From Escherichia phage V18: a stretch of DNA of 64,000 bases. This document shows positions 11,225 to 62,327 of this stretch, piece after piece; position 1 is the first letter of the stretch; each line of letters begins with the position of its first letter. The stretch lies in the sequence record NC_041937.1; one strand, 5' to 3'. Both the position numbers and the translations under genes were made by a program. Below the pieces are notes generated by a model. The model saw nothing but the letters and a program-made list of their open reading frames with translations. It ran no database searches and had not been told where the DNA came from.

Positions 11225-11264
11225 AATGGCTCACTTTGTTAGTGAGCCAGAAATGGAGACAGAT

Positions 11265-35388: not shown

Positions 35389-35652
35389 TTATTTGTTATT
35401 CATCCAGTTTTCCCAAGCTGCCTGATAATCTGCCTCACTGCGGCGGATCTCTTCTTGCTCTTCAAGCCGGATCTCTTCTTCCAGGTACCCCAAGATATCG
35501 GCTTTTTTGGTCTGGCGTAACATCCAATCATCTTTTTTACGGGTAAAGATCTTATATGCTTTCTCGCAAACCTCTTTTTTGCTACCTTTTTGGACTTTAA
35601 GAACTTTGTAGGCCATGTACTGAACTAGTTTGAGCTGATCAAGACGTTTCAT
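35389..35652 (-). CDS. hypothetical protein
   Basis: 87 aa; RBS AAAGAGGTAAA; GC hairpin in leader. Confidence 0.4.
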   Translation of the reverse strand: MKRLDQLKLVQYMAYKVLKVQKGSKKEVCEKAYKIFTRKKDDWMLRQTKKADILGYLEEEIRLEEQEEIRRSEADYQAAWENWMNNK

Positions 35653-35744
35653 GATGTTTACCTCTTTATGAGGTTCTGGTTTGGTGTGGGCCTTTTGGCC
35701 CGTGTCATTATCTTATTACTTACGGCGGCAAAATTCAAGTGTTT

Positions 35745-35987
35745 TTAATTGATAATCTTCCTCAGCTTGGAGTACAACCGCTCGATCATTTCGTTGGCAT
35801 TGGTGAAGCCATACCCTTGAGCGAACTCATCCGCGCCACCTTCGTGATCATGTTCTGCGTTCATCGCTTCCACAAAATGGAATTCAAGATTATTGAGGTA
35901 AGGGCTTGATGTTCCGTCCTCTTTTTCGATGAGATCCCAGATAGCATTAAAACGTGATTCAACTTCTTGATTAATCCAGCTTGACAT
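35745..35987 (-). CDS. hypothetical acidic protein
   Basis: 80 aa; RBS AGAGAGGAAA. Confidence 0.4.
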   Translation of the reverse strand: MSSWINQEVESRFNAIWDLIEKEDGTSSPYLNNLEFHFVEAMNAEHDHEGGADEFAQGYGFTNANEMIERLYSKLRKIIN

Positions 35988-36197
35988 AATGTTTTCCTCT
36001 CTTCTGGTTGTTGTGTGGGCACTTTTGCCCCTTCAAGATAAATAATATCCCACCACCTGGCAGATGTCAACGGTTTTTATAGTTTTTATATAACAGGCAC
36101 CCCCGGTGATTGTCTCCCCCCGTCGCCAGGTGCCACCCGTGAAACAAGTATAACAAAAAACAGGACAAAAACAAGCCCTGTTTTGTAGATATAAGGA

Positions 36198-36399: not shown

Positions 36400-36675
36400 T
36401 TACGTAGCTTTACCGTTTACGGTTATCGGCAGATCCTCCAGGTCTGGATCTTCTTTAAGGTCGCGAGCAAGTTCACCGCACCGAACGCCCTCGAATCCGT
36501 AGTACTCTGTCGTGCCATCCTGGAAAGTTTTAGCGGCAAGGCATAGGCGATAAGTAACACCGATTTGATTGACGGCATGGATATCAGTTAGATCTACCTC
36601 TTTTGCCAGCTCTTTGGCCATTACAGGCGCATTAAGTCCAACAACCAGGGCAACCACTGCGATCATCTTTTTCAT
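36400..36675 (-). CDS. small secreted protein with signal peptide
   Basis: MKKMIAVVALVVGLNAPVMA signal-like N-terminus. Confidence 0.45.
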   Translation of the reverse strand: MKKMIAVVALVVGLNAPVMAKELAKEVDLTDIHAVNQIGVTYRLCLAAKTFQDGTTEYYGFEGVRCGELARDLKEDPDLEDLPITVNGKAT

Positions 36676-36766
36676 TGTATCTATCCTCTTTCTGCTACGT
36701 TTAAGGCGGCGGCAACCGCCTGTTTATGCTTTGTTGGTTAATTTTCGGGTATCGGTATAAATTAAA

Positions 36767-37240: not shown

Positions 37241-37420
37241 TTAACGATAATCATCGTACGCTTTATTAACCTGGCGAATATAACATTCAAAAGCCAGATC
37301 AATAGATTTATATTCACGGATATACTCACCATAGGAAACCACATACATTTCTATAGCTTCCTCATATGCGAGGAGAGTAGAATCCAAGCCTACGATCTCA
37401 GTCTTTGCAATAATAGCCAT
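37241..37420 (-). CDS. hypothetical small protein (59 aa)
   Basis: RBS AAAGAGGA before ATG; below ORF-track cutoff. Confidence 0.35.
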   Translation of the reverse strand: MAIIAKTEIVGLDSTLLAYEEAIEMYVVSYGEYIREYKSIDLAFECYIRQVNKAYDDYR

Positions 37421-37490
37421 GATTTTTATCCTCTTTGTGGTTGGTGGGCTTGCCCCTTTGATTTATATACTACAGTCTTATATGGTCATG

Positions 37491-37724
37491 TCAACTATTT
37501 TCAAAAAATTTTTCTGCCGTGATATTCTTCCCGGTGGGGTTCGCCACCTTCAAAATTTTATCATGCACTGGACGCCCAAAAGAATAAGCGCCGTACGCAG
37601 TAAGCCAATAATCCCCGTCAGGCTGTACTATTACCGCCGCATATGGTACGCCTTTTTCGTTTTTGCTGACAAAATAGATCACATTGCCATTAATAGCCTC
37701 AGCGCGTTTAATTTGTTCCATCAT
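37491..37724 (-). CDS. hypothetical protein
   Basis: 77 aa ORF. Confidence 0.4.
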   Translation of the reverse strand: MMEQIKRAEAINGNVIYFVSKNEKGVPYAAVIVQPDGDYWLTAYGAYSFGRPVHDKILKVANPTGKNITAEKFFENS

Positions 37725-37780: not shown

Positions 37781-38065
37781 TTATTTATTGATAGCGTGCA
37801 ACGGGAAAGGTACGCCAGGTTGATAGATAACTTTTACAACCTCATCGGGGCAAAAGAAATTACAAAATTCACCCCGATAAGCTTCATCTTCTTTTAATTC
37901 TTCATCAACATACTCAAAAAAGTAGTCGATGCTTGGATAATCCTGACCGGGATTATAGTCAACCATTGTCAGGACTAGTTCAAGATCGTTGCGTAGGATA
38001 TGCATACCTGCTTTTAAGTATTTTGCTTCCATTTCTACTACATCGCCAACGGTAACAATAGCCAT
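37781..38065 (-). CDS. hypothetical protein
   Basis: 94 aa; RBS TAGGAGTTAAAA; leader contains the G17 tract. Confidence 0.4.
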   Translation of the reverse strand: MAIVTVGDVVEMEAKYLKAGMHILRNDLELVLTMVDYNPGQDYPSIDYFFEYVDEELKEDEAYRGEFCNFFCPDEVVKVIYQPGVPFPLHAINK

Positions 38066-38101
38066 GATTTTAACTCCTATCTATCCGGTTAATGATTGGA
38101 G

Positions 38102-38118
38102 CCCCCCCCCCCCCCCCC
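38102..38118. repeat. homopolymeric C17 tract (G17 on the coding strand)
   Basis: 17 consecutive C residues counted in the sequence, 37-53 nt upstream of the 38065 start. Confidence 0.9.
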
Positions 38119-38298
38119 GACACCCTTTATTATCCATATTGTAGGGCTTGATGCAAGTACTTCTTTAAAAATTTTTTAAGCGCCTTGGGGGCCGCTGTAG
38201 CGCTAAAATAATAAAGGCCATGCAACCGCATAGCTTTATGTGATTATATCGCTGCAGGCCCTACCATGGGCCTTATTTTGCATCATTTGCTGGAATTA

Positions 38299-38640: not shown

Positions 38641-38689
38641 TTACTTTATTGATGGCCCTGGAGTCAAGGCCATCTAAAAATAAATTTTA
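38641..38689. repeat. copy 1 of a conserved ~50-bp intergenic element
   Basis: ttactttattgatggccctggagtcaaggccatctaaaaataa; near-identical to copies at 42367 and 42987. Confidence 0.7.
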
Positions 38690-38694
38690 CAGGC

Positions 38695-38886
38695 CTACAA
38701 TCTCTTTATTCGTTTTACTGCTGCCTCAGCGCCTTGAGGGTAAAAATTATGGTAACCAATCACGCGGGTAATACTGATCGCCGCCTGATGATCTTCATAA
38801 TACCCCTTGAATATTTCTTGACCATCAACCAGCACAGCAATTTTTTCTTCTTTTTTGAAGTTAATAACGCGGATATTGTTGCTCAT
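38695..38886 (-). CDS. hypothetical protein
   Basis: 63 aa ORF. Confidence 0.35.
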   Translation of the reverse strand: MSNNIRVINFKKEEKIAVLVDGQEIFKGYYEDHQAAISITRVIGYHNFYPQGAEAAVKRIKRL

Positions 38887-39364
38887 TTTGTTTCTCCTTT
38901 TGGAACTTTGTCTGTGTGGTGGGGAGTGTCTCCCCGTTGATTGTTATTATCCATATTCAGGACCGGATTGCAACACCCAGGGAGAAAAAATTTGAAAAGT
39001 TAGGCCCCAGGGATCGGGGCCGTTATCAGGCACGTACAGCGATAAAATACATCCCTACGCCTAACAATATTTCAAGGGCGATGATCTCCAGCCATACCAT
39101 AACACGGCGCGCCTTATCGGTGCTGGGCTTATCCTTGGGTGTCATCGTCTCCCCCTTTCCTCCTGTTAGTAGTGACGTGGTTTGTAATGGTCCCCAGGAG
39201 TATTATCACCACGCACATTACAAGAAAAATTATCTCTGTCGTTGTTCGATCCATTGTTATAAAACTCCTTAAGATCAGGCCTGAAAATAAAGCTTTCGTT
39301 ATTGAATCCATCCCGCCAGGCGGCTGGCTTCAAATCTTCACTAAATGGATTAATTAACGTGGTA

Positions 39365-40180: not shown

Positions 40181-40268
40181 GATGTTATCCTCTTTGTTTT
40201 GTGTGGGGCAAATCATCGCCCCCTTGAGTTTTAATATAGCAGGTTTTTAGGTTATTGCAACACTTTAT

Positions 40269-40497: not shown

Positions 40498-40890
40498 TTA
40501 CAGTGTTTTCATGGCTGTAATGGCTGTACTTGTCGCGTTCAACACTGGCTGATAACTCGCATCGTGCATTGTGCCGAACAAGTGACGAATTGATCGGAAC
40601 TTGGTCAGGGCCCTTACTTTACGCAAAAATTTTTCTAAATCCACGTTTTCAGCACTGATTGAAGCGCCGTCACCCTGGCACCAAAAGCCGGACCAATGTA
40701 CTTCGGTATCTTCAAGGCCGTACTCTGGAAAGATATATTCTTTGTAGTGTTCAATTACACTTTCTGCAAAAAAGTCATCCCCGCTGCGTTCTTCTCTTTC
40801 GCGGACCATTTCAATGGCTTTTTCTTTTTGTTCGTCGGTCAGCACGTCGAAAGATAAATTGCAACCTGTAGTAATGTTAACGGTAGTCAT
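40498..40890 (-). CDS. hypothetical protein
   Basis: 130 aa; RBS ATAGGAGAAAA; promoter and leader hairpin upstream. Confidence 0.4.
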   Translation of the reverse strand: MTTVNITTGCNLSFDVLTDEQKEKAIEMVREREERSGDDFFAESVIEHYKEYIFPEYGLEDTEVHWSGFWCQGDGASISAENVDLEKFLRKVRALTKFRSIRHLFGTMHDASYQPVLNATSTAITAMKTL

Positions 40891-40946
40891 GATGTTTTCT
40901 CCTATTTTCTTTGTTAGTGGCGGGAAGTTTTCCCGTTTACGTGTTT

Positions 40947-40975
40947 AAGTATACTTATCAAGATTTACTTGTCAA
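40947..40975 (-). promoter_or_regulatory. sigma70-like promoter (TTGACA-17-ATACTT)
   Basis: plus-strand tgtcaa at 40970-40975 and aagtat at 40947-40952. Confidence 0.5.
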
Positions 40976-41225
40976 CACTATTTTTTAAATTATTGTGGCG
41001 CAAAATGTTTAAAATCTCCTCAACGTCATCAACACGGCGGCAATTTTTAAACGCTACCAATTGCCCCATGATTTTAATCACTGGGCGGCCTTGCCAGTGC
41101 CCCTGGAGAAAGCGCGCCTTGACTTTATCGGTGGAACTATCACGCCACCAAATAGCCTTGTTGTTGCAGTAGTAAAAATTATTCAGGACAACATCAACTT
41201 TATCAAAATTTTTTAATTTACGCAT
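40965..41225 (-). CDS. hypothetical protein
   Basis: 86 aa ORF. Confidence 0.35.
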   Translation of the reverse strand: MRKLKNFDKVDVVLNNFYYCNNKAIWWRDSSTDKVKARFLQGHWQGRPVIKIMGQLVAFKNCRRVDDVEEILNILRHNNLKNSVDK

Positions 41226-41430
41226 GGCGTTTACTCCTTTCTCTCTTTGATGTGGTTAGTATAGCTAACCTGTTGACGATGTCAAGGTTAAATAAAAAAC
41301 TGTCAATGATATTTTTAACGCCATAAAACGGCCCTAAGCGATGTTTTCAGGTTAAAGGGGGGGCGATTGCATAGGTGGGGCCTTTTTGGCGCTTACAGGG
41401 CCAACCAGGGGCGCTATTCGTAGGATAGAA

Positions 41431-41457
41431 ATAAAAAGCCCCGCACAATGGCGGGGC
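41431..41457 (-). terminator. intrinsic terminator
   Basis: gccccgc-6 nt loop-gcggggc then U5 on the minus-strand transcript, just after the 41466 stop. Confidence 0.6.
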
Positions 41458-41465
41458 GTTGGTTG

Positions 41466-41687
41466 TTATTTGTCTTTATGGCGGTATCGTTCTGCCTGTC
41501 GTTCACGTTCCAAAAGTAGGCCGGGCAATTTACGATCATAATGATTGCGCCAGATCTTCCCAAACCTTTTTGGCTTATTCAGTTTATTGTTACGCTGGCG
41601 GCGTTCTGGCAGCTCTTCGGAATCATGAGGGCGCTTTACAATTTTCTCGAAATTAATTTTCATATATTCCCCCCTTGCTAACTTCAA
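41466..41687 (-). CDS. hypothetical basic protein
   Basis: 73 aa, Arg/Lys-rich. Confidence 0.4.
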   Translation of the reverse strand: MKLARGEYMKINFEKIVKRPHDSEELPERRQRNNKLNKPKRFGKIWRNHYDRKLPGLLLERERQAERYRHKDK

Positions 41688-42004
41688 TATTGGCCTGAAT
41701 AGCCGATACGGCGCTTTATAACTTCCTGATCTGTGTGGTCATATCCCCAAAAGTCTACGATTTTTGCGCCTCCAGCCTTTAGGCGGTATAGTGTTTCTTG
41801 CATCTTGTAAGCTGGGATCGGTCGCGGTGTTACCTGGTCGCCTCTCTCATCCTTGTACTTGATAATGTAGTCTTCGTTGTCGTTGAATGCCCAAAATGGG
41901 TATTCTGTGAGCGCGTTGCTATCTTTTTCGTTTTTAGATTGGATCTTGTTTACAATTAAAGCCGTAGCAATAGCGCCAATGATAAAACTAGCCCCGCTAA
42001 TCAT
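41684..42004 (-). CDS. membrane protein
   Basis: 106 aa; N-terminal SFIIGAIATALIV. Confidence 0.4.
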   Translation of the reverse strand: MISGASFIIGAIATALIVNKIQSKNEKDSNALTEYPFWAFNDNEDYIIKYKDERGDQVTPRPIPAYKMQETLYRLKAGGAKIVDFWGYDHTDQEVIKRRIGYSGQY

Positions 42005-42079
42005 GTACTTTCTCCTTTCATGGTGTTAATAAATTATCTTTATAGATGGCCCTGCAACCAGGACCACCGAAAAAACAGC

Positions 42080-42325
42080 TTATTTGACGATACCGACAAA
42101 ACAGATCCCGCCTTCCCCTATATAGGCAATATCGGTAATTTTATAATTTGTCAAGATCTGCTTATTTAGTTCATTAATAAAATCGGTCATTGCGTTGGTG
42201 TAGTTGTCTTCCGTGTCTAAGGCATAATCCCAGGTGTACACCTTTTTACGTCCGAAGCCTTTTACCATGATACGGGCGCTTTTGGTGTTGGTAGGGGCAT
42301 AATATTTGGTGATTAGTGCTGCCAT
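42080..42325 (-). CDS. hypothetical protein
   Basis: 81 aa ORF. Confidence 0.4.
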   Translation of the reverse strand: MAALITKYYAPTNTKSARIMVKGFGRKKVYTWDYALDTEDNYTNAMTDFINELNKQILTNYKITDIAYIGEGGICFVGIVK

Positions 42326-42366
42326 GGTTTTAACTCCTATGCATTAGTTCAGTGTTAACAGTATAA

Positions 42367-42417
42367 AGTTTACTTTATTGATGGCCCTGGTGTCAAGGCC
42401 ATCTAAAAATAAGCTTA
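42367..42417. repeat. copy 2 of the conserved ~50-bp intergenic element
   Basis: 51 nt identical to 42987-43037. Confidence 0.8.
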
Positions 42418-42755
42418 CTCGTTTTCTTCCAGCTCCGCAAGCTCTTCTTTTGCTTCTTCCAACCCTGTCTGTAATTCCTGGTATTCTTCATCGTCCTCAA
42501 TATCCAGCTGTCGATGTAGTCGCTAAATCCGCAGCGGTAAGCGATAGGATCTAGCTCCTTGAGGATACGCGACGGAAGAAAAGAAATGTTTCCGATCATA
42601 ATTTCGCCGTAGATCTCGTCTAACCATTCATCATAGTTTTCGTCGTACTTGTCCTCGTCGATTTCAAAGTTATCGATCTTATTCTCAAGGTCTGCGATCT
42701 GTTTTTTCAGCGCGGCGATCTGCATGGCTTTTTCTGCGGCGGTCATAGTAGTCAT
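42393..42755 (-). CDS. hypothetical coiled-coil acidic protein (3' end probably frameshifted)
   Basis: tracked frame ends in a K/R-rich tail; an alternative frame gives an acidic end LDIEDDEEYQELQTGLEEAKEELAELEENE with stop at 42416. Confidence 0.4.
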   Translation of the reverse strand: MTTMTAAEKAMQIAALKKQIADLENKIDNFEIDEDKYDENYDEWLDEIYGEIMIGNISFLPSRILKELDPIAYRCGFSDYIDSWILRTMKNTRNYRQGWKKQKKSLRSWKKTSKLIFRWP

Positions 42756-42806
42756 GGTGTTTTTCTCCTTTTGTGTGTTCTGGGAAGTTTTCCCGTTTAT
42801 GTGCTT

Positions 42807-42834
42807 ATTATAGCGATTTAAGTTAGCTTGTCAA
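42807..42834 (-). promoter_or_regulatory. sigma70-like promoter (TTGACA-16-TATAAT)
   Basis: plus-strand tgtcaa at 42829-42834 and attata at 42807-42812. Confidence 0.5.
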
Positions 42835-42954
42835 TTAAAAGTTTAAGAAAAATTTTGCGACACCGTTGGCGCTACCCATCAACATTTGCGCCAGGATGTA
42901 CCCAATGATGCAAACGATGATGGTTACCTTTGTGTGCTGGCGTGTAGTGCTCAT
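42835..42954 (-). CDS. small hydrophobic peptide (39 aa)
   Basis: MSTTRQHTKVTIIVCIIGYILAQMLMGSANGVAKFFLNF. Confidence 0.3.
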   Translation of the reverse strand: MSTTRQHTKVTIIVCIIGYILAQMLMGSANGVAKFFLNF

Positions 42955-42986
42955 CTTCAAGCCTCCTTTTTCGCTTAATTGAGATT

Positions 42987-43037
42987 AGTTTACTTTATTG
43001 ATGGCCCTGGTGTCAAGGCCATCTAAAAATAAGCTTA
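42987..43037. repeat. copy 3 of the conserved ~50-bp intergenic element
   Basis: 51 nt identical to 42367-42417. Confidence 0.8.
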
Positions 43038-43183
43038 GTAAATTTTCAGTACTTTACCGTCCAACCTGTCAAGCTGGATCTCGATAGCTGCAGAAAACCT
43101 ATTGTACACCACGTCGCCCATAGAATCCAACCAGTCTATGACGTTATACACTTGCTCTTTGTTCTTGCAGGTCCGGATCCGTT

Positions 43184-43396
43184 TCATGATGTAAGCCGGA
43201 TCAATATTGGTACTCTCGTTGGGGCCTTTACCACCACCTGGAATGGCTTTAAGGTGCCTTTTGCGTTCATCTCACGCGCTTTTGCGGCGCGGTTGTTATA
43301 TGTTACACAACGGCGGCAAATGTTGATCAAATGCATGTCAATAATTTTTTCATCGTTTGCCAACTCGTTCATGATGCGGCGTACGTTCTTATTCAT
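43184..43396 (-). CDS. hypothetical protein
   Basis: 70 aa ORF; C-terminal part may be out of frame. Confidence 0.3.
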   Translation of the reverse strand: MNKNVRRIMNELANDEKIIDMHLINICRRCVTYNNRAAKAREMNAKGTLKPFQVVVKAPTRVPILIRLTS

Positions 43397-43443
43397 GATC
43401 TTTTTCCTTTGTGCTGGCGGGAAACATTCCCGCCTTTTGTGTC

Positions 43444-43472
43444 TAGTTTACTTAAATTTTGCAGCGTGTCAA
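43444..43472 (-). promoter_or_regulatory. sigma70-like promoter (TTGACA-17-AAACTA)
   Basis: plus-strand tgtcaa at 43467-43472. Confidence 0.45.
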
Positions 43473-44913: not shown

Positions 44914-45089
44914 AAAATCCATTTCTGAAAACGAAAAATCGATTTCGTTCCCAAAAATTTTAGACCTGGTGCTGGACCAATTTCAAGAAAATCCGATTCA
45001 GAAAACGAAAAACAGATCGAGTACCGAAAAATTTATCGAGAAAAATTTTCAGAAAATTCAATCTTTGAAACGAAAAACAGATCGAGTAC
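44914..45089. repeat. tandem direct repeats (three units of ~66-74 bp)
   Basis: gaaaacgaaaaa(c/t)... at 44927, 45001, 45067; a 23-mer is identical between units 2 and 3. Confidence 0.7.
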
Positions 45090-45401
45090 TTGGAAAGCTG
45101 TGCCGCAACTTCAAGATAGTGGTTGGATTATTACCATAAAAGGTCAAGGGTAAGCGGAGGAAGTTCCCGTAGAAGGGTGTGAGCATGTGCGGGAAATCTG
45201 TAATGGTGATCTGGAATATGGTGCAAACGATAGGATGAGTGATTCATCTCGTCGTGCCTGCTCTGAAAAATCCATTTTAGTTTTCGATCCATTTTCTGAT
45301 TTTCTAAGGATTTTAAAATATCCGGGCAGGTAAAATATCAAAAGGAGGAAATCCATTTTAGAAATCCCCCTTACACTTGATATGCCAGGAATTTTCAAGT
45401 A

Positions 45402-46180: not shown

Positions 46181-46513
46181 TTAAGGTAACCAGTAAACAA
46201 TCTCGCCTTTCAGCTTCATGTCGTTTCCAACATAAATTTGCCAGCCATCCATCTTAGCAGCTGCAGGCCCAAAGTCATCCGCACCCCTTACCTCTTTCCA
46301 GGTCCCGTAGTCAGGTTGCCAGATGTAAAATCCACCATCTTTATCCCATGCTCCGTACACTACGTTTAACAGGTTTCCCATTGCAACAATGGTGGGCCGT
46401 GGGAATAATACATCTACAGATGCGCCACAATTTCTGGTATCTTTTAAGTTGCAATCCCAAAAGATGTCTGCCAGTGTGGCGGCGATAGCTTTACGTCTTT
46501 CCAATGTTACCAT
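46181..46513 (-). CDS. hypothetical protein
   Basis: 110 aa ORF. Confidence 0.4.
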   Translation of the reverse strand: MVTLERRKAIAATLADIFWDCNLKDTRNCGASVDVLFPRPTIVAMGNLLNVVYGAWDKDGGFYIWQPDYGTWKEVRGADDFGPAAAKMDGWQIYVGNDMKLKGEIVYWLP

Positions 46514-46710
46514 ATCATACTCACTTTGTTAATAAGTTCTAAAACTTTCTGTCTTACTTTGTCAAGGTCTGTGGATTCAAAAACTGTACGGTATCCCCAA
46601 CTTTGCCCATAGGAGTGACTGCAATCCCCGTAGCACCATTGCTCAATTTGATAGTATTCAAGGAACGGGTGCTGTCTAACTATGATACCATCTCGGTTAA
46701 AAATTACCAT
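46507..46710 (-). CDS. hypothetical protein
   Basis: 67 aa ORF. Confidence 0.35.
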   Translation of the reverse strand: MVIFNRDGIIVRQHPFLEYYQIEQWCYGDCSHSYGQSWGYRTVFESTDLDKVRQKVLELINKVSMIW

Positions 46711-46773
46711 AATACATCGCTCTCTGTTAGTTTATGCGTATATTATACACTGCAGTCTTCAGATGTCAACCTC

Positions 46774-48656: not shown

Positions 48657-48718
48657 TTTTCAGATCTCCTTATACAAAAATGCCCCACCCTTTCGGGCAG
48701 GGCTATGTCAGTTAGGTG

Positions 48719-49153
48719 CTAAAAGTATTCATAGAAGTATCCATCTGGAGCTGGAATTTTTTCATGAATGTAGTAACCAATATATATTCCGGTTTCTCTG
48801 CTACAAGAGTTGTGGGATACCCATTCTTTAAGAACGTTACCATTCATGTCCAACCTCCTTACATTTTTGCACCGTCTACCGCTGGTGCTTCTATGCAACA
48901 GAATATCCTCCGTCTGCTTATCTTTATTTTCTCCCCAAGTCGTTAAACGGATATTATCAAAAGAGTACCCTTTGAAATCATCTATCCTGTCACAAGAAGG
49001 CTTTTTCCTTTTGTCGTATCCGCTGGCTACCCACTGATCATACAACTCTTTGTAACCGTTTAGGTATAGCCACTCCTTAAACTCTTTTTTGGTGTAAGTC
49101 GGAGGAGGGTGACCTCTTTGCTTGCTGTTGCACTTTTGAGCCTTGTACAACAC
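48719..49153 (-). CDS. putative HNH-family endonuclease
   Basis: PSCDRIDDFKGYSFDNIRLTTWGEN resembles the HNH_3 core (DxID...DN...EN). Confidence 0.35.
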   Translation of the reverse strand: MLYKAQKCNSKQRGHPPPTYTKKEFKEWLYLNGYKELYDQWVASGYDKRKKPSCDRIDDFKGYSFDNIRLTTWGENKDKQTEDILLHRSTSGRRCKNVRRLDMNGNVLKEWVSHNSCSRETGIYIGYYIHEKIPAPDGYFYEYF

Positions 49154-49263
49154 ACGTATTACACCTTTTTCTGAAGAGTCTTTAGCAAATTGGTCAGCCT
49201 CCCTGCTGGCCTTCTTGCAACACTCTTTGCACGTTGATTTGTTGCTGGTATAGAAGTCGGACC

Positions 49264-51882: not shown

Positions 51883-52214
51883 TACGCTTCCTCGTCGTCT
51901 AAGTAATCATCAAGAGAGGTGAAGATTTCACCGAAGTATTCTAAGATTTCTAGCTCACGTGTGGTGCAGCAAACATAATCTCCTTGGTCGTCCTTAATAG
52001 TGGCCTCTTTACCCAGAACATCTACTTCAAATTCATCGTTCAGCAGGACGGCCCCTGTGTAAACTTTGTCAGCTGTGCAGTCCCGAAAAGCAGAGTCCTT
52101 TTCCAGATAGTCTGGCTTAACCTTGGCTTTAATTCGTTGATATTGTTTGGTCATTGCTGTGGTCTCCTTTCGTTTTGATAGGGCCATTATATTAGGCCCC
52201 ATCACTGTTGTCAA
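51882..52214 (-). CDS. hypothetical protein (paralog of 52218-52472)
   Basis: shared KP(D/E)...D-AF(R/K)DCT...KDD(Q/E)GD. Confidence 0.4.
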   Translation of the reverse strand: MTTVMGPNIMALSKRKETTAMTKQYQRIKAKVKPDYLEKDSAFRDCTADKVYTGAVLLNDEFEVDVLGKEATIKDDQGDYVCCTTRELEILEYFGEIFTSLDDYLDDEEA

Positions 52215-56457: not shown

Positions 56458-56515
56458 ATACAGTTCTCCTTAAAGGGGAGGCGGTTGTACTACCCCTCCC
56501 ACTCTTTGTTAAACA

Positions 56516-58582: not shown

Positions 58583-59368
58583 TTATTCCCCTCTCCTTAC
58601 TACAGGCTCGTTTGCTAAGAATACAGCTTTTGCCCAGCCACGTGGTGTGAGGCTTCGAATCATCTTCGTTCTTGCACTCTTTCCACCAAGCTTGGCGTGT
58701 TGCATGGAATACCCGCTAACCACGTCAACTATTTGCGGGACAGGTTTTGTGTCCGGGATTATAAATCCATTACCTATCCAGCCGCAAGTTATTTTTGGAT
58801 AGGCATCACGTGGAGCTATAAATTCAGGAAACCATGGGTTTACATCATCCTCAGGTAAATACCCGCCATAGTCAGAAGGATGAAAACGGTAATCAGGTTT
58901 GCGCCACAGTGTGGACATAACACCAACAGGATTCTCTACATGCCACGGGCAATCGTAAATCTCTCCCAGCTCTTCCGCAACCCGAGCATCCTTTACAGCA
59001 TTAATTTGGATCATGGGGTCCTTAGCCAGCTTTTTCTTAAAATGTGCAGCACCCGATACCGCTAAATGCGTGCACGGAGGAAATGCAAGAATAAAGTCTG
59101 GAGCTGGATACATGCAAAAAGTTTCCTGAGGGAACCACGGGTCAATCCAATAGTCAACATAGTGAATGTTGGGATGATCGGTTATCACCTCTGCATAACT
59201 GCCGTGATCAGCACCTTCTGCGTTAAAGCACAGGCACAGATATCCAGCTTTTGCCCAGTCAATGACTGCACCACCAGACCCGTCAAATAGACTCCACACA
59301 ACACCTTTGTGGTAGTGTTCTTTGTAGATAAATTTCAATTTGCTGTCTCCTAATGCAAAAAGCCCCAC
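58583..59368 (-). CDS. putative DNA cytosine-5 methyltransferase-like protein
   Basis: 261 aa; SLFDGSGG (motif I-like), FPPCTH (PC motif), HVENPVG (ENV motif). Confidence 0.5.
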   Translation of the reverse strand: MGLFALGDSKLKFIYKEHYHKGVVWSLFDGSGGAVIDWAKAGYLCLCFNAEGADHGSYAEVITDHPNIHYVDYWIDPWFPQETFCMYPAPDFILAFPPCTHLAVSGAAHFKKKLAKDPMIQINAVKDARVAEELGEIYDCPWHVENPVGVMSTLWRKPDYRFHPSDYGGYLPEDDVNPWFPEFIAPRDAYPKITCGWIGNGFIIPDTKPVPQIVDVVSGYSMQHAKLGGKSARTKMIRSLTPRGWAKAVFLANEPVVRRGE

Positions 59369-59389
59369 CCTTTCGGGCAGGGCCTAGTG

Positions 59390-60280: not shown

Positions 60281-60624
60281 CAGAAACCTCCCACTTCTTC
60301 AGCAAATGCAGCTGCTGTCGTCGCTGCATCCAGATAGGACTCTAGTTCACGGGATGCACGTTTGTAAATTGAGTGGCGCATATCGTTTGGCAGTTGGTGG
60401 AAGTCCACCTCTTCACCGTTGTGGTAAACATGCACATCGGTAATTTGTCTAAATCCGTAATAGTCAACATCAGAATCACGGCACTCTGGGTCTGGCAACT
60501 GGACAACTGCCTGAGCTTCCACAGTGAACATATCGTCAAGTTCGAAATCGATTTCAAAAGTGTATGGTTTATAACGTTTCATCATTTGATTGTGCTCTTT
60601 ATTGATCAGACTTATCTTTCGCAA
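60280..60624 (-). CDS. hypothetical protein
   Basis: 114 aa ORF. Confidence 0.4.
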   Translation of the reverse strand: MRKISLINKEHNQMMKRYKPYTFEIDFELDDMFTVEAQAVVQLPDPECRDSDVDYYGFRQITDVHVYHNGEEVDFHQLPNDMRHSIYKRASRELESYLDAATTAAAFAEEVGGF

Positions 60625-61924
60625 TTAAGGTCGGGGTAAGTTTGTAATAACGGAAGCCACCACCACCTTTCCAGTTTACAGACTTAGAAATACCACCTTG
60701 ATCTTCGCCATCGATCACTTTTTCCAAGCGCGGAATAATATGGGTATGACAATGATCACCTAGCTCGATTGAGATCCAACGTCTTTTCATCTTGTGAGCT
60801 ACAGCAGCAGTAGTTCCCGAACCACCGAATGAATCCAATACCAAATCGCCTTCTCGCGTACACATTTCTAAAATCCGCTTCAAAAGAGCTTCTGGTTTTT
60901 TCCCATTTTTGAAACTGACGCCGCCTTCATTTGCTATTCCATTCCAACTAATGTCTGTCCAAACATCAGTTATTAGTTCCGCAGGTTGCATCTCACCGTC
61001 AATTTCCAAAAGTCTATTGGAGTAAAAGACCATTTGCCTACCATTTGCGATATAAAATCCTTCAACATCCTCATTTGGATGTACATAAACCTTATCCCTA
61101 TCTTTCTTTGACTTCTCGATAGTTTCTTTTCTCTTTATTTTAGCACCACCACCAATTGCAACAGATTGAAATACACGTTCTGCATTATCAGTTGCGAATT
61201 GTGCTAATTCATCATCGAATGTATCAGGCAGTTTTTTCTTGGCTTCTTTTGCATCTTTATAACCATTGGCCTTTGCAAACGCATCGGCAATACCGCACCA
61301 CGTCCAATTTTTATAATGGTCATCCGGGTTTAATAGGTATTTGTTATATCCTGTATCATACCCTTTAGGTATATAGATTTTGTTAAGCGGTTTCTGGGTG
61401 CGATCTTTTGCATATACAAGCAAAAAGTTTGCTGTGGAGAAAACTGTGGCTCCTGTTGCCTTAAATCCCGAAGGGGAATTTGTGGTCATCGATATGGTAT
61501 TTAACTGATTTGCACGACCAAAAATCTCGTCCATCAAAACTTTTAAATACGCCATTTCGCAATCATCTAAGTGAACGAATATTACCCCATCATCACTTAG
61601 AAGATTACGAATTATTTCTAACCTATCCCTCATTAAGCCCAGCCAAATGGAATGCTCCAGGCTATCATCGTAGTGCTCAAAAGCCCTTCCGGTATTGAAT
61701 GGTGGGTCTATGTAAACACACTTCACTTTGCCTGCATACTCTTGCTCTAGCGCCTTCAATGCTAATAAGTTATCTCCAAAAATCAGTTTATTATCAAAAA
61801 TATCGTTTTCGGTCACTTTCTGGCTGTGGTAAGACTTGCTAGAATCCTCTAACAAAATGTGCGGCTCTAACTTTTTGCGCTCGTTTTTACCTATCCAGGT
61901 AAGTTCTAATTTGGTTTTGCTCAT
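60599..61924 (-). CDS. DNA N6-adenine/N4-cytosine methyltransferase, type III Mod / ParB-methylase-like
   Basis: 441 aa; YIDPPFNTG (DPPF motif) upstream of LDSFGGSGTT (SAM-binding); N-terminal ELTWIGK. Confidence 0.8.
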   Translation of the reverse strand: MSKTKLELTWIGKNERKKLEPHILLEDSSKSYHSQKVTENDIFDNKLIFGDNLLALKALEQEYAGKVKCVYIDPPFNTGRAFEHYDDSLEHSIWLGLMRDRLEIIRNLLSDDGVIFVHLDDCEMAYLKVLMDEIFGRANQLNTISMTTNSPSGFKATGATVFSTANFLLVYAKDRTQKPLNKIYIPKGYDTGYNKYLLNPDDHYKNWTWCGIADAFAKANGYKDAKEAKKKLPDTFDDELAQFATDNAERVFQSVAIGGGAKIKRKETIEKSKKDRDKVYVHPNEDVEGFYIANGRQMVFYSNRLLEIDGEMQPAELITDVWTDISWNGIANEGGVSFKNGKKPEALLKRILEMCTREGDLVLDSFGGSGTTAAVAHKMKRRWISIELGDHCHTHIIPRLEKVIDGEDQGGISKSVNWKGGGGFRYYKLTPTLIAKDKSDQ

Positions 61925-61985
61925 CGTTTGGTGCTCTCCTTAGTTTTTGTGGGGAGGAGTGCCTCCCCTTTATACTCACATCTTA

Positions 61986-62327
61986 CTACTCAAGGTCTTC
62001 AGAGTCAAGCTCAAAAAGAATCAAACTGTGCATGCCTGCAGAGAGATTAACACACCCTGCAACAATAAGGGTTTGATAGTAAGGTTCAGCACCCTCAATG
62101 TCTTCGTTAAAATCCACAACAAGGTAGTCACCTTTGTTAAAGGTGTATTTGTCCGATGTAAACGCAAAACCTGCCCAGTCCCCTACTGCAGGATCTTTAT
62201 CAGTCACCTTTGTTAGCAGTAGATCTTTTTCACGAGATCTTTTAGTAAAATCGTGAATCACAACATCCTTCTCTTCAGGAGTCGGATTGCCACACACGTA
62301 GTTAACGATATTTCTCCACAAACTCAT
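61986..62327 (-). CDS. hypothetical protein
   Basis: 113 aa ORF. Confidence 0.4.
   Translation of the reverse strand: MSLWRNIVNYVCGNPTPEEKDVVIHDFTKRSREKDLLLTKVTDKDPAVGDWAGFAFTSDKYTFNKGDYLVVDFNEDIEGAEPYYQTLIVAGCVNLSAGMHSLILFELDSEDLE

Follow-up and report, generated by a model that had tools for sequence, protein, structure and literature searches.

GC-rich hairpins downstream of early promoters in the rV5-like Escherichia phage V18 look like parts of promoter/stem-loop cassettes

A stretch of 64,000 nucleotides from Escherichia phage V18 (sequence record NC_041937.1), called the window below, carries a set of short GC-rich hairpins in the leaders of genes on its minus strand, and these hairpins are the subject of the present analysis. 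The window belongs to an rV5-like E. coli myovirus of the genus Vequintavirus. Its polymerase and that of slur16, another phage, are 99.9% identical, and a 3.3-kb stretch at the hairpin leaders first noticed is matched by 120 phage records at 90–96% identity. Minus-strand genes span about 33 kb to 64 kb of the window. Between about 35 and 48 kb lie small ORFans with spacers of 60–95 nt between them, and these spacers carry near-consensus sigma70 promoters. With the exception of a DNA methylase gene, none of the genes downstream of the hairpins matches a Pfam family above the curated cut-off. Scanning the whole window against Rfam at gathering thresholds yielded zero families, and a tRNA scan zero tRNAs.

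A sequence-only reading of the window had reported hairpins in the leaders of the genes starting at 40890, 42755 and 43396, at 35688 and 36016, and before the polymerase and Mod methyltransferase genes. All of them are present on the minus (coding) strand. Some stems had been slightly misparsed, and the corrected forms of the hairpins designated a–e and g and of the polymerase hairpin are given in Table 1, together with further members of the series up to k. A position between a sigma70-like promoter and the ribosome-binding site holds for a–e and g, each of which begins 8–12 nt past the -10 hexamer; for the polymerase hairpin, a convincing promoter was not found. The polymerase hairpin has the same sequence in a related phage (L001; relatives are cited by such numbers).

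The leaders in question follow a common order. An AT-rich upstream stretch precedes the -35 and -10 hexamers, which match the consensus at 9–12 of 12 positions and are separated by spacers of 16–18 nt. After 8–12 A-rich nucleotides, often including ATAAA, the hairpin follows, composed of a G-rich arm, a loop of 3–5 nt and a C-rich arm, with stems of 5–8 bp. Further downstream come a CA-rich spacer (ACACAACAACC and similar sequences), a purine-rich Shine–Dalgarno sequence and the ATG. The annotation of rV5 includes promoters P192, P168 and others, the first of which corresponds to promoter b. On the assumption that transcription starts 7–8 nt past the -10 hexamer, the unpaired 5' tail of the transcript is predicted to be 2–6 nt long. 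The stems differ by leader family (CGGGAA, GGGCA, GGGCC, GGGGAG(G), GGGGCGA, GGCGG and GGGGG). Hairpins a, b and c have a common CGGGAA/TTCCCG stem, and the paralogues a and c possess identical 8-bp stems, with flanks that are only about 75% identical.

The shared leader structure that had been suspected from the sequence is non-random in its position. Only 30 perfect GC hairpins of at least 5 bp occur in the whole 64 kb. On the sense strand of the minus arm, 10 hairpin hits lie 8–13 nt past a -10 hexamer, as compared with 1.58 expected (Poisson probability 7e-6). These hits represent 8 distinct loci (about 1e-4), seven of them in gene leaders and one inside a gene, the latter probably being a chance hit. 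The feature is specific to strand and arm, as neither the plus arm nor either of the antisense strands showed an excess in the same position scan. The same pipeline returned 0 hits, with 1.39 expected, from 38 unrelated phage contigs (721 kb, both strands), which had come up in an IMG/VR search with the protein of the gene starting at 42755, together with a single true relative (L002), and which were used as a negative control only. A second, smaller peak is situated at -37, where the hairpin surrounds the -35 hexamer; one source of such hairpins is a 51-nt repeat present in four copies in the window. The tally of stem-loops amounts to at least seven downstream of the -10 hexamer, four over the -35 hexamer and one or two over the -10 hexamer. 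No hairpin was found between a stop codon and the -35 hexamer or in the middle of a leader.

RNA folding gave every hairpin as the minimum-free-energy and the centroid structure, with energies of -5.5 to -17 kcal/mol and z scores of -1.5 to -5.0, the degenerate hairpin f excepted, and the remainder of the hairpin leaders is predicted to be unstructured. The hairpin-less leaders of the same region fold at 0 to -1.9 kcal/mol, except for the 43016 leader at -4.9 kcal/mol. Leaders with a hairpin are 43–56 nt long versus 26–37 nt for those without, and because of this difference the hairpin can be regarded as an extra 5' module placed in front of a standard leader.

The hairpins are genuine and statistically robust, and evolution has maintained them. 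The early regions of 14 Vequintavirus genomes were compared, including rV5, FV3 and an IMG/VR contig of about 83% identity. All nine alignable hairpins are found at orthologous sites, and each orthologue variant folds, at -3.8 to -14.6 kcal/mol. The mean pairwise difference of the stems is 0.063, equal to that of the flanking coding sequence, while the leader flanks reach 0.095–0.112 and the loops 0.232. Loop variants include TGT, ATGTC, AACA and ACA in hairpin a, AAAA, GGGA and GAAA in e, ACA, GCTAA, GCAA and GACA in h, and TTG, TTA and CGGTGA in i. The length of the palindrome also varies by strain (a, 19/18; h, 15/14; d, 14/19; i, 13/16), and a 4-nt insertion in hairpin d of L051 produces a 7-bp stem.

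Compensatory changes were read directly and with RNAfold; MAFFT set the G-run stems out of register, and the paralogues differ in stem length. Among internal stem transitions, eight are compatible with pairing on the sense strand and one is incompatible (binomial, about 0.02; the events were collected post hoc). The transitions to a sense-strand G·U pair concern c in L002, d in L048 and L001, i in L050 and k in L049, as well as three in a promoter-less copy of the -35 type, and the sole mismatch affects f in L053 and L045. Hairpin k provides one clean compensatory series between orthologues, G-C to G·U to A-U, from GGGGG/CCCCC in most genomes via GGGGG/CCTCC in L049 to GGAGG/CCTCC in L002 and L047. 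Other stem changes are uncompensated: hairpin c has a C-to-A change in three genomes, h has a G-to-T change in L048, and terminal pairs have been lost several times. Selection for pairing is thus supported, but not overwhelmingly. The hairpins are most likely a feature of the RNA level, in line with the post-transcriptional nature that the sequence-only reading had suggested.

The loops deserve a remark of their own. Those of a, e, h and i vary more between strains (0.23) than the flanks (about 0.10), and hairpin a of L002 shows an exact inversion of the loop, from TGT to ACA. Such hypervariability may reflect template-switch mutagenesis at short palindromes.

Outside the genus, three of eight early promoters of the Avunavirus Av-05 have hairpins 11–13 nt past the -10 hexamer, the stems (GGGGAGAG..CTCTCCCC and GACGGGGAG..TTCCCCGTC, for example) being unrelated.

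Table 1. Promoters, hairpins and composite cassettes in the V18 window. Promoters are written as -35 hexamer, spacer length in nt and -10 hexamer.
Feature	Position	Strand	Sequence	Remarks
Promoter a	43445..43472	-	TTGACA-16-TAAACT	Gene starting at 43396
Hairpin a	43416..43434	-	GGCGGGAAtgtTTCCCGCC = GGCGGGAA-tgt-TTCCCGCC	Begins 10 nt past -10; -14.6 kcal/mol, z -3.4
Promoter b (rV5 P192)	42807..42834	-	TTGACA-16-TATAAT	Gene starting at 42755
Hairpin b	42782..42794	-	GGGAAaacTTCCC = GGGAA-aac-TTCCC	Begins 12 nt past -10; -5.5 kcal/mol, z -1.7
Promoter c	40948..40975	-	TTGACA-16-TATACT	Gene starting at 40890
Hairpin c	40921..40935	-	CGGGAAaacTTCCCG = CGGGAA-aac-TTCCCG	8 bp in relatives, GGCGGGAA..TTCCCGCC
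Promoter j	40233..40260	-	TTGCAA-16-TATATT	Gene start probably 40180
Hairpin j	40205..40222	-	GGGGCGAtgatTTGCCCC	One G·U; paired on sense strand only
Promoter h	38946..38973	-	TTGCAA-16-GATAAT	Gene starting at 38886
Hairpin h	38921..38935	-	GGGGAGacaCTCCCC	-13 kcal/mol, z -2.9
Cassette k	38098..38156	-	TTGCAT-16-GATAAT, then G17 run and CTCC	Gene starts at 38065; relatives have GGGGG-loop-CCCCC or GGAGG-loop-CCTCC at the G17 site
Cassette f	37446..37494	-	TTGACA-16-TAGTAT	Gene starts at 37420
Hairpin f	37446-37455	-		Degenerate in this genome; relatives have GGGGCaacaaGCCCC
Hairpin i	36708..36720	-	GGCGGttgCCGCC	Before gene starting at 36675; promoter weak
Cassette d	36017..36070	-	TTGACA-17-TATTAT	Gene starts at 35987
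Hairpin d	36017-36030	-	GGGCAaaagTGCCC = GGGCA-aaag-TGCCC	Part of cassette d
Cassette e	35688..35738	-	TTGAAT-17-TAAGAT	Weak promoter; gene starts at 35652
Hairpin e	35688-35701	-	GGGCCaaaaGGCCC = GGGCC-aaaa-GGCCC	Part of cassette e
Cassette g	61951..62008	-	TTGACT-17-TAAGAT	N6_N4 DNA methylase gene (Pfam) starts at 61924
Hairpin g	61951-61968	-	GGGGAGGcactCCTCCCC = GGGGAGG-cact-CCTCCCC	Part of cassette g
Polymerase hairpin	56475..56500	-	GGGAGGGG...CCTCCCC	Intercistronic, primase/helicase to polymerase gene
Sister hairpin over -35	43000..43023	-	GATGGCCTTGacacCAGGGCCATC	Encloses -35 TTGACA; member of the 51-nt repeat
Further hairpin copies of the 51-nt repeat	42380-42403, 38651-38674, ~42045-42068			~42045-42068 promoter-less
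Sister hairpin over -10	52181..52199	-	GGGCC..GGCCC	Encloses -10 TATAAT of promoter at 52214

Three of the sites call for separate comment. At 38102-38118, the plus strand reads C17 and the coding strand G17, where 13 relatives have a hairpin and where the G runs of the relatives comprise at most 5–7 nucleotides; the run is either a poly-G artefact of sequencing or assembly or a real expansion that destroys hairpin k. The gene after hairpin c (40498-40890) encodes 130 aa here versus 207 aa (624 bp) in rV5, FV3 and other relatives. As tblastn covers residues 1–111 only, a frameshift or truncation in this genome is probable. Homologues of this gene are found in jumbo phages, and one of them is annotated as a YeeU-like antitoxin. 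On the plus arm, the sole promoter with an adjacent hairpin is at 11227-11249 (+), where TATAAT is followed after 2 nt by TGGCTCACTttgttAGTGAGCCA and the ribosome-binding site; this hairpin is nearer to the -10 hexamer than those of the minus arm.

A known family of elements offers the closest parallel. PeSLs (promoter-early stem-loops) combine a sigma70 promoter of the consensus type, AT-rich in its upstream part, with a stem-loop of the G(n)-loop-C(n) type (Arbiol et al. 2010, PMC2839356). The first examples came from hyperplastic regions of RB49 and phi1, two T4-type phages (PMC2839356), and Comeau et al. 2014 (PMC4122927), from whom the G(n)-loop-C(n) description is taken, later extended them to other T4-like phages. 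The V18 hairpins look like the stem-loop halves of composite early-promoter/stem-loop cassettes of this kind in an ORFan-rich region, and the class delineated by the sequence-only reading is more aptly seen as a subclass of promoter-plus-stem-loop cassettes defined by position. With the PeSLs of RB49/phi1, PST and nt-1, the V18 cassettes have in common the near-consensus sigma70 promoter, the AT-rich upstream region and the G(n)-loop-C(n) build, as well as a stem-loop that may be situated downstream of the -10 hexamer, over it, over the -35 hexamer or between the two. Both are repeated in front of small ORFans within a hyperplastic early region, and both display chimeric cassettes, cassette-bounded insertions and deletions, and G·T pairs in the stems. 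The V18 window thus has the strong promoters, the adjacent or overlapping stem-loops, the repeated copies among ORFans and the cassette-bounded gene changes of a PeSL region. The lineages are nevertheless different, the phages considered here being Vequintavirinae and not Straboviridae, and so is the main position of the stem-loop, which is just past the start in V18 but between the -35 and -10 hexamers or over the -10 hexamer in phi1 and RB49. Termination or attenuation of upstream transcription and the formation of mini-circles are further marks of PeSL cassettes; as far as the sequence goes, the V18 hairpins have no U-tract. In the literature searched, PeSLs are not mentioned outside T4-like phages and none is reported for rV5-like phages. 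The genome papers on rV5, CB7 and ICP1 list promoters and terminators but not leader hairpins, and the literature searched yielded no transcriptome or start-site study of Vequintavirus.

The leader hairpins strongly prefer the place right past the predicted transcription start and never lie between stop codon and -35 hexamer or in mid-leader, an indication that a location at the very beginning of the nascent RNA is of consequence. We therefore favour, with about an even chance of its being correct, a role as a sequence-independent barrier to decay at the 5' terminus, combined with a 3' barrier on read-through RNA. The messenger would begin with an A-rich tail of 2–6 nt, followed by the hairpin as a GC clamp, 26–38 nt of unstructured CA-rich leader and a strong Shine–Dalgarno sequence, the last two as in the hairpin-less leaders. 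The hairpin would hinder the 5'-end-dependent decay of the adjacent promoter's transcript by RppH and RNase E. On transcripts reading through from upstream promoters, it would constitute a barrier to 3' exonucleases or a pause, and such a 3' barrier would be the only RNA-level role available to the hairpins over the -35 and -10 hexamers. A point in favour of the decay barrier is that hairpin leaders with this preference of position come from several unrelated stem families.

That RNase E acts more slowly on an RNA whose 5' end is base-paired is established in E. coli (Emory 1992 and Bouvet 1992, as cited in the review PMC3997798). The stabilisers of ompA and papA (Emory, Bouvet & Belasco 1992 via PMC3997798) resemble the V18 leaders in that a short stable hairpin stands at the 5' end of the mRNA (the predicted one in V18), the stem may have any sequence and the ribosome-binding site downstream is accessible. 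They differ in that the unpaired tail is predicted to be 2–6 nt in V18 and in that many phage genes instead of a single long-lived host mRNA are concerned. With REP-type and other operon-internal stabilisers and with terminators, the hairpins share the location of GC-rich structures between the cistrons of a polycistronic RNA, but they are much shorter than REP elements, and it is the promoter, not the preceding stop codon, to which their location is linked. A decay barrier gains plausibility from the probable Srd homologue of rV5 (PMC3606486), given that the Srd protein of T4 stimulates RNase E on host mRNA (PMC4980113). The hairpins might even be a form of self-marking, by which early phage mRNAs would be exempt from Srd-boosted RNase E and self would be told from host mRNA through the 5' structure alone, but this extension is a long shot. 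In a narrower version of it, the identical GGCGGGAA/TTCCCGCC stems of a and c, partly kept in b, would mark a few genes as a regulon to which a phage protein binds.

Several observations weigh against a decay barrier. About half of the early promoters are hairpin-less. Emory and colleagues are said to have found in 1992 that protection requires no more than about 2–4 unpaired nucleotides, and as the predicted tails reach 6 nt, several hairpins may lie too far in. Protection of the 5' end cannot account for the whole cassette family, because the sister hairpins over the -35 and -10 hexamers lie outside the transcript of the adjacent promoter. The folding energies of sense and antisense strands do not differ significantly among 49 orthologue variants (P = 0.21), and the strand argument consequently rests on the substitution counts. 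Variable positions make up 20 of 94 stem columns, as compared with about 30% of the flank columns, a modest excess of conservation. Finally, KPP-1 (Mydovirus) and CR9 (Certrevirus), from the two other genera of Vequintavirinae sampled, show no leader hairpins downstream of the polymerase gene, in regions that are tightly packed and contain few promoters; this result is uninformative, because the ORFan-rich regions of these two phages were not located.

The strongest competitor, which we nonetheless hold to be unlikely, takes up the role first suggested for PeSLs: the stem-loops would be terminators or attenuators of upstream transcription, the cassettes mainly sites of homologous recombination for the shuffling of ORFans, and the leader position incidental. 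PeSL stem-loops are known in five positions relative to the promoter, including just past the -10 hexamer, and a stem-loop of RB49 lowered the expression of lacZ to an extent similar to that of rrnB T1 (PMC2839356). V18 likewise has hairpins over the -35 hexamer (the 51-nt repeat family) and over the -10 hexamer. However, no U-tract follows any of the leader hairpins. The next 8 nt contain 0–2 U in a–j and three non-consecutive U in k, the sequence being CA-rich, in contrast to the true terminators of the window with their T5 runs. The hairpins accordingly lack the sequence mark of intrinsic terminators or attenuators, and the attenuation considered in the sequence-only reading is not supported. 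A terminator at this place would, in addition, abort the transcripts of its own promoter, and neither the clustering at +3 to +6 nor the absence of hairpins between stop codon and -35 hexamer would be predicted.

The recombination part of this competitor draws on signs of exchange in the region. The window contains two cassette repeat families (D1 and D10), and insertions and deletions recur between relatives. The 5' half of leader c corresponds to the b-type leader of other strains, with the junction inside the hairpin, and because the 5' half of its hairpin is b-type, cassette c is a b/c chimera. An extra ORF (open reading frame) in rV5 and other phages has a repeated piece of leader e on its flanks, and the methylase gene is likewise bordered by leader-sequence repeats. 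This evidence is weak, because any viable insertion or deletion must break in intergenic DNA anyway. As compared with phage EduardKellenberger, the N6_N4 DNA methylase gene (60599-61924) has been inserted directly past leader g (window 60588-61920), and an imperfect repeat of about 15 nt, derived from the leader end, stands on its flanks (GAGCACCAAACGATG / GAGCACAATCAAATG).

A connection with the phages in which PeSLs were discovered also exists at the level of a single gene. The ORFan at 46507-46710 (minus strand, 67 aa) exhibits 88–90% protein and 84.5% DNA identity to a gene of RB49-like Krischvirus phages, among them MIZ3, ELT4 and JK32. The similarity stops at the borders of the ORF, and the cassettes themselves are therefore not shared. 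This pattern indicates that one small gene passed fairly recently from one lineage of myoviruses to another. rV5-like and RB49-like phages therefore take early ORFans from a shared pool.

The decay barrier has also to be set against a role of the hairpin during transcription itself, in which it would form in the RNA exit channel shortly after initiation and promote sigma release and promoter escape, or counteract backtracking or R-loops at very strong promoters. The fixed distance from the promoter, the near-consensus promoters adjacent and the immateriality of the stem sequence would suit it. Equally strong promoters of the same region, such as those at 46769 and 41285, nevertheless do without a hairpin, and we regard such a role as improbable.

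Still less credence is given to a common site for one trans-acting factor, be it a translational repressor, an antiterminator of the boxB/N type or a processing nuclease. The CGGGAA/TTCCCG stem common to a, b and c, together with the identity of the 8-bp stems of a and c in spite of their diverged flanks, speaks for it. Taken together, however, the stems fall into at least six unrelated sequence families, so that the common repressor site envisaged by the sequence-only reading lacks a shared stem or loop. RNA-binding proteins usually read loops, and the loops are the most variable part, in sequence and in length. A sequence-specific RNA operator of the boxB/N, T4 gp43 or RegA type is at odds with a loop difference of 0.23, the highest of all classes. 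The idea of RNase processing fares no better, as stems of 5–8 bp are far too short for RNase III, which needs about 20 bp or more of double-stranded RNA, and Rfam provides no match.

The weakest candidate, a DNA operator for a dimeric protein just past the start or an antisense terminator on the plus strand, has in its favour palindromes centred at about +12 to +15, a classic repressor position, and a terminator scan that flags a and b on the plus strand, where a T-rich stretch follows, but it is held to be very improbable, because the length of the palindrome and hence the half-site spacing varies by strain, no half-site at a fixed spacing is common to the leaders, the substitutions and standing wobble pairs favour pairing of the sense RNA by 8 to 1, and the plus-strand T-runs are short (TTTA, TTCA, GTGT) and merely the complement of the A-rich start region, which the hairpin-less leaders share.

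Other features of the minus arm may be recorded here. A segment of about 539 bp (48725-49263) with an ORF at 48719-49153 is missing from the relatives L001, L043, L045, L047 and L049. It likely represents a mobile nuclease gene, and the annotation of rV5 has a gene for endonuclease VII (ORF 213) nearby. The terminator hairpin GCCCTGCCCgaaaGGGTGGGGC is present twice, at 48682-48703 and at about 59362-59383. At 44914-45099, a 47-nt unit occurs three times in diverged form with a spacing of 65–74 nt, each unit being a long AT-rich hairpin; the surroundings are gene-poor and contain promoter-like sites as well.

What is seen here in Vequintavirinae are PeSL-type cassettes and putative 5' stabiliser hairpins, a new case of a known kind of element and not a new regulatory principle. 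If confirmed, promoter/stem-loop cassettes would not be confined to T4-type phages but would extend to the rV5-like lineage, and they might constitute a general way for large virulent coliphages to package, express and exchange small accessory genes. As natural 5' leader modules composed of a strong promoter, a GC clamp and an unstructured leader, they may also illustrate how early phage mRNAs escape host-driven or phage-stimulated decay.

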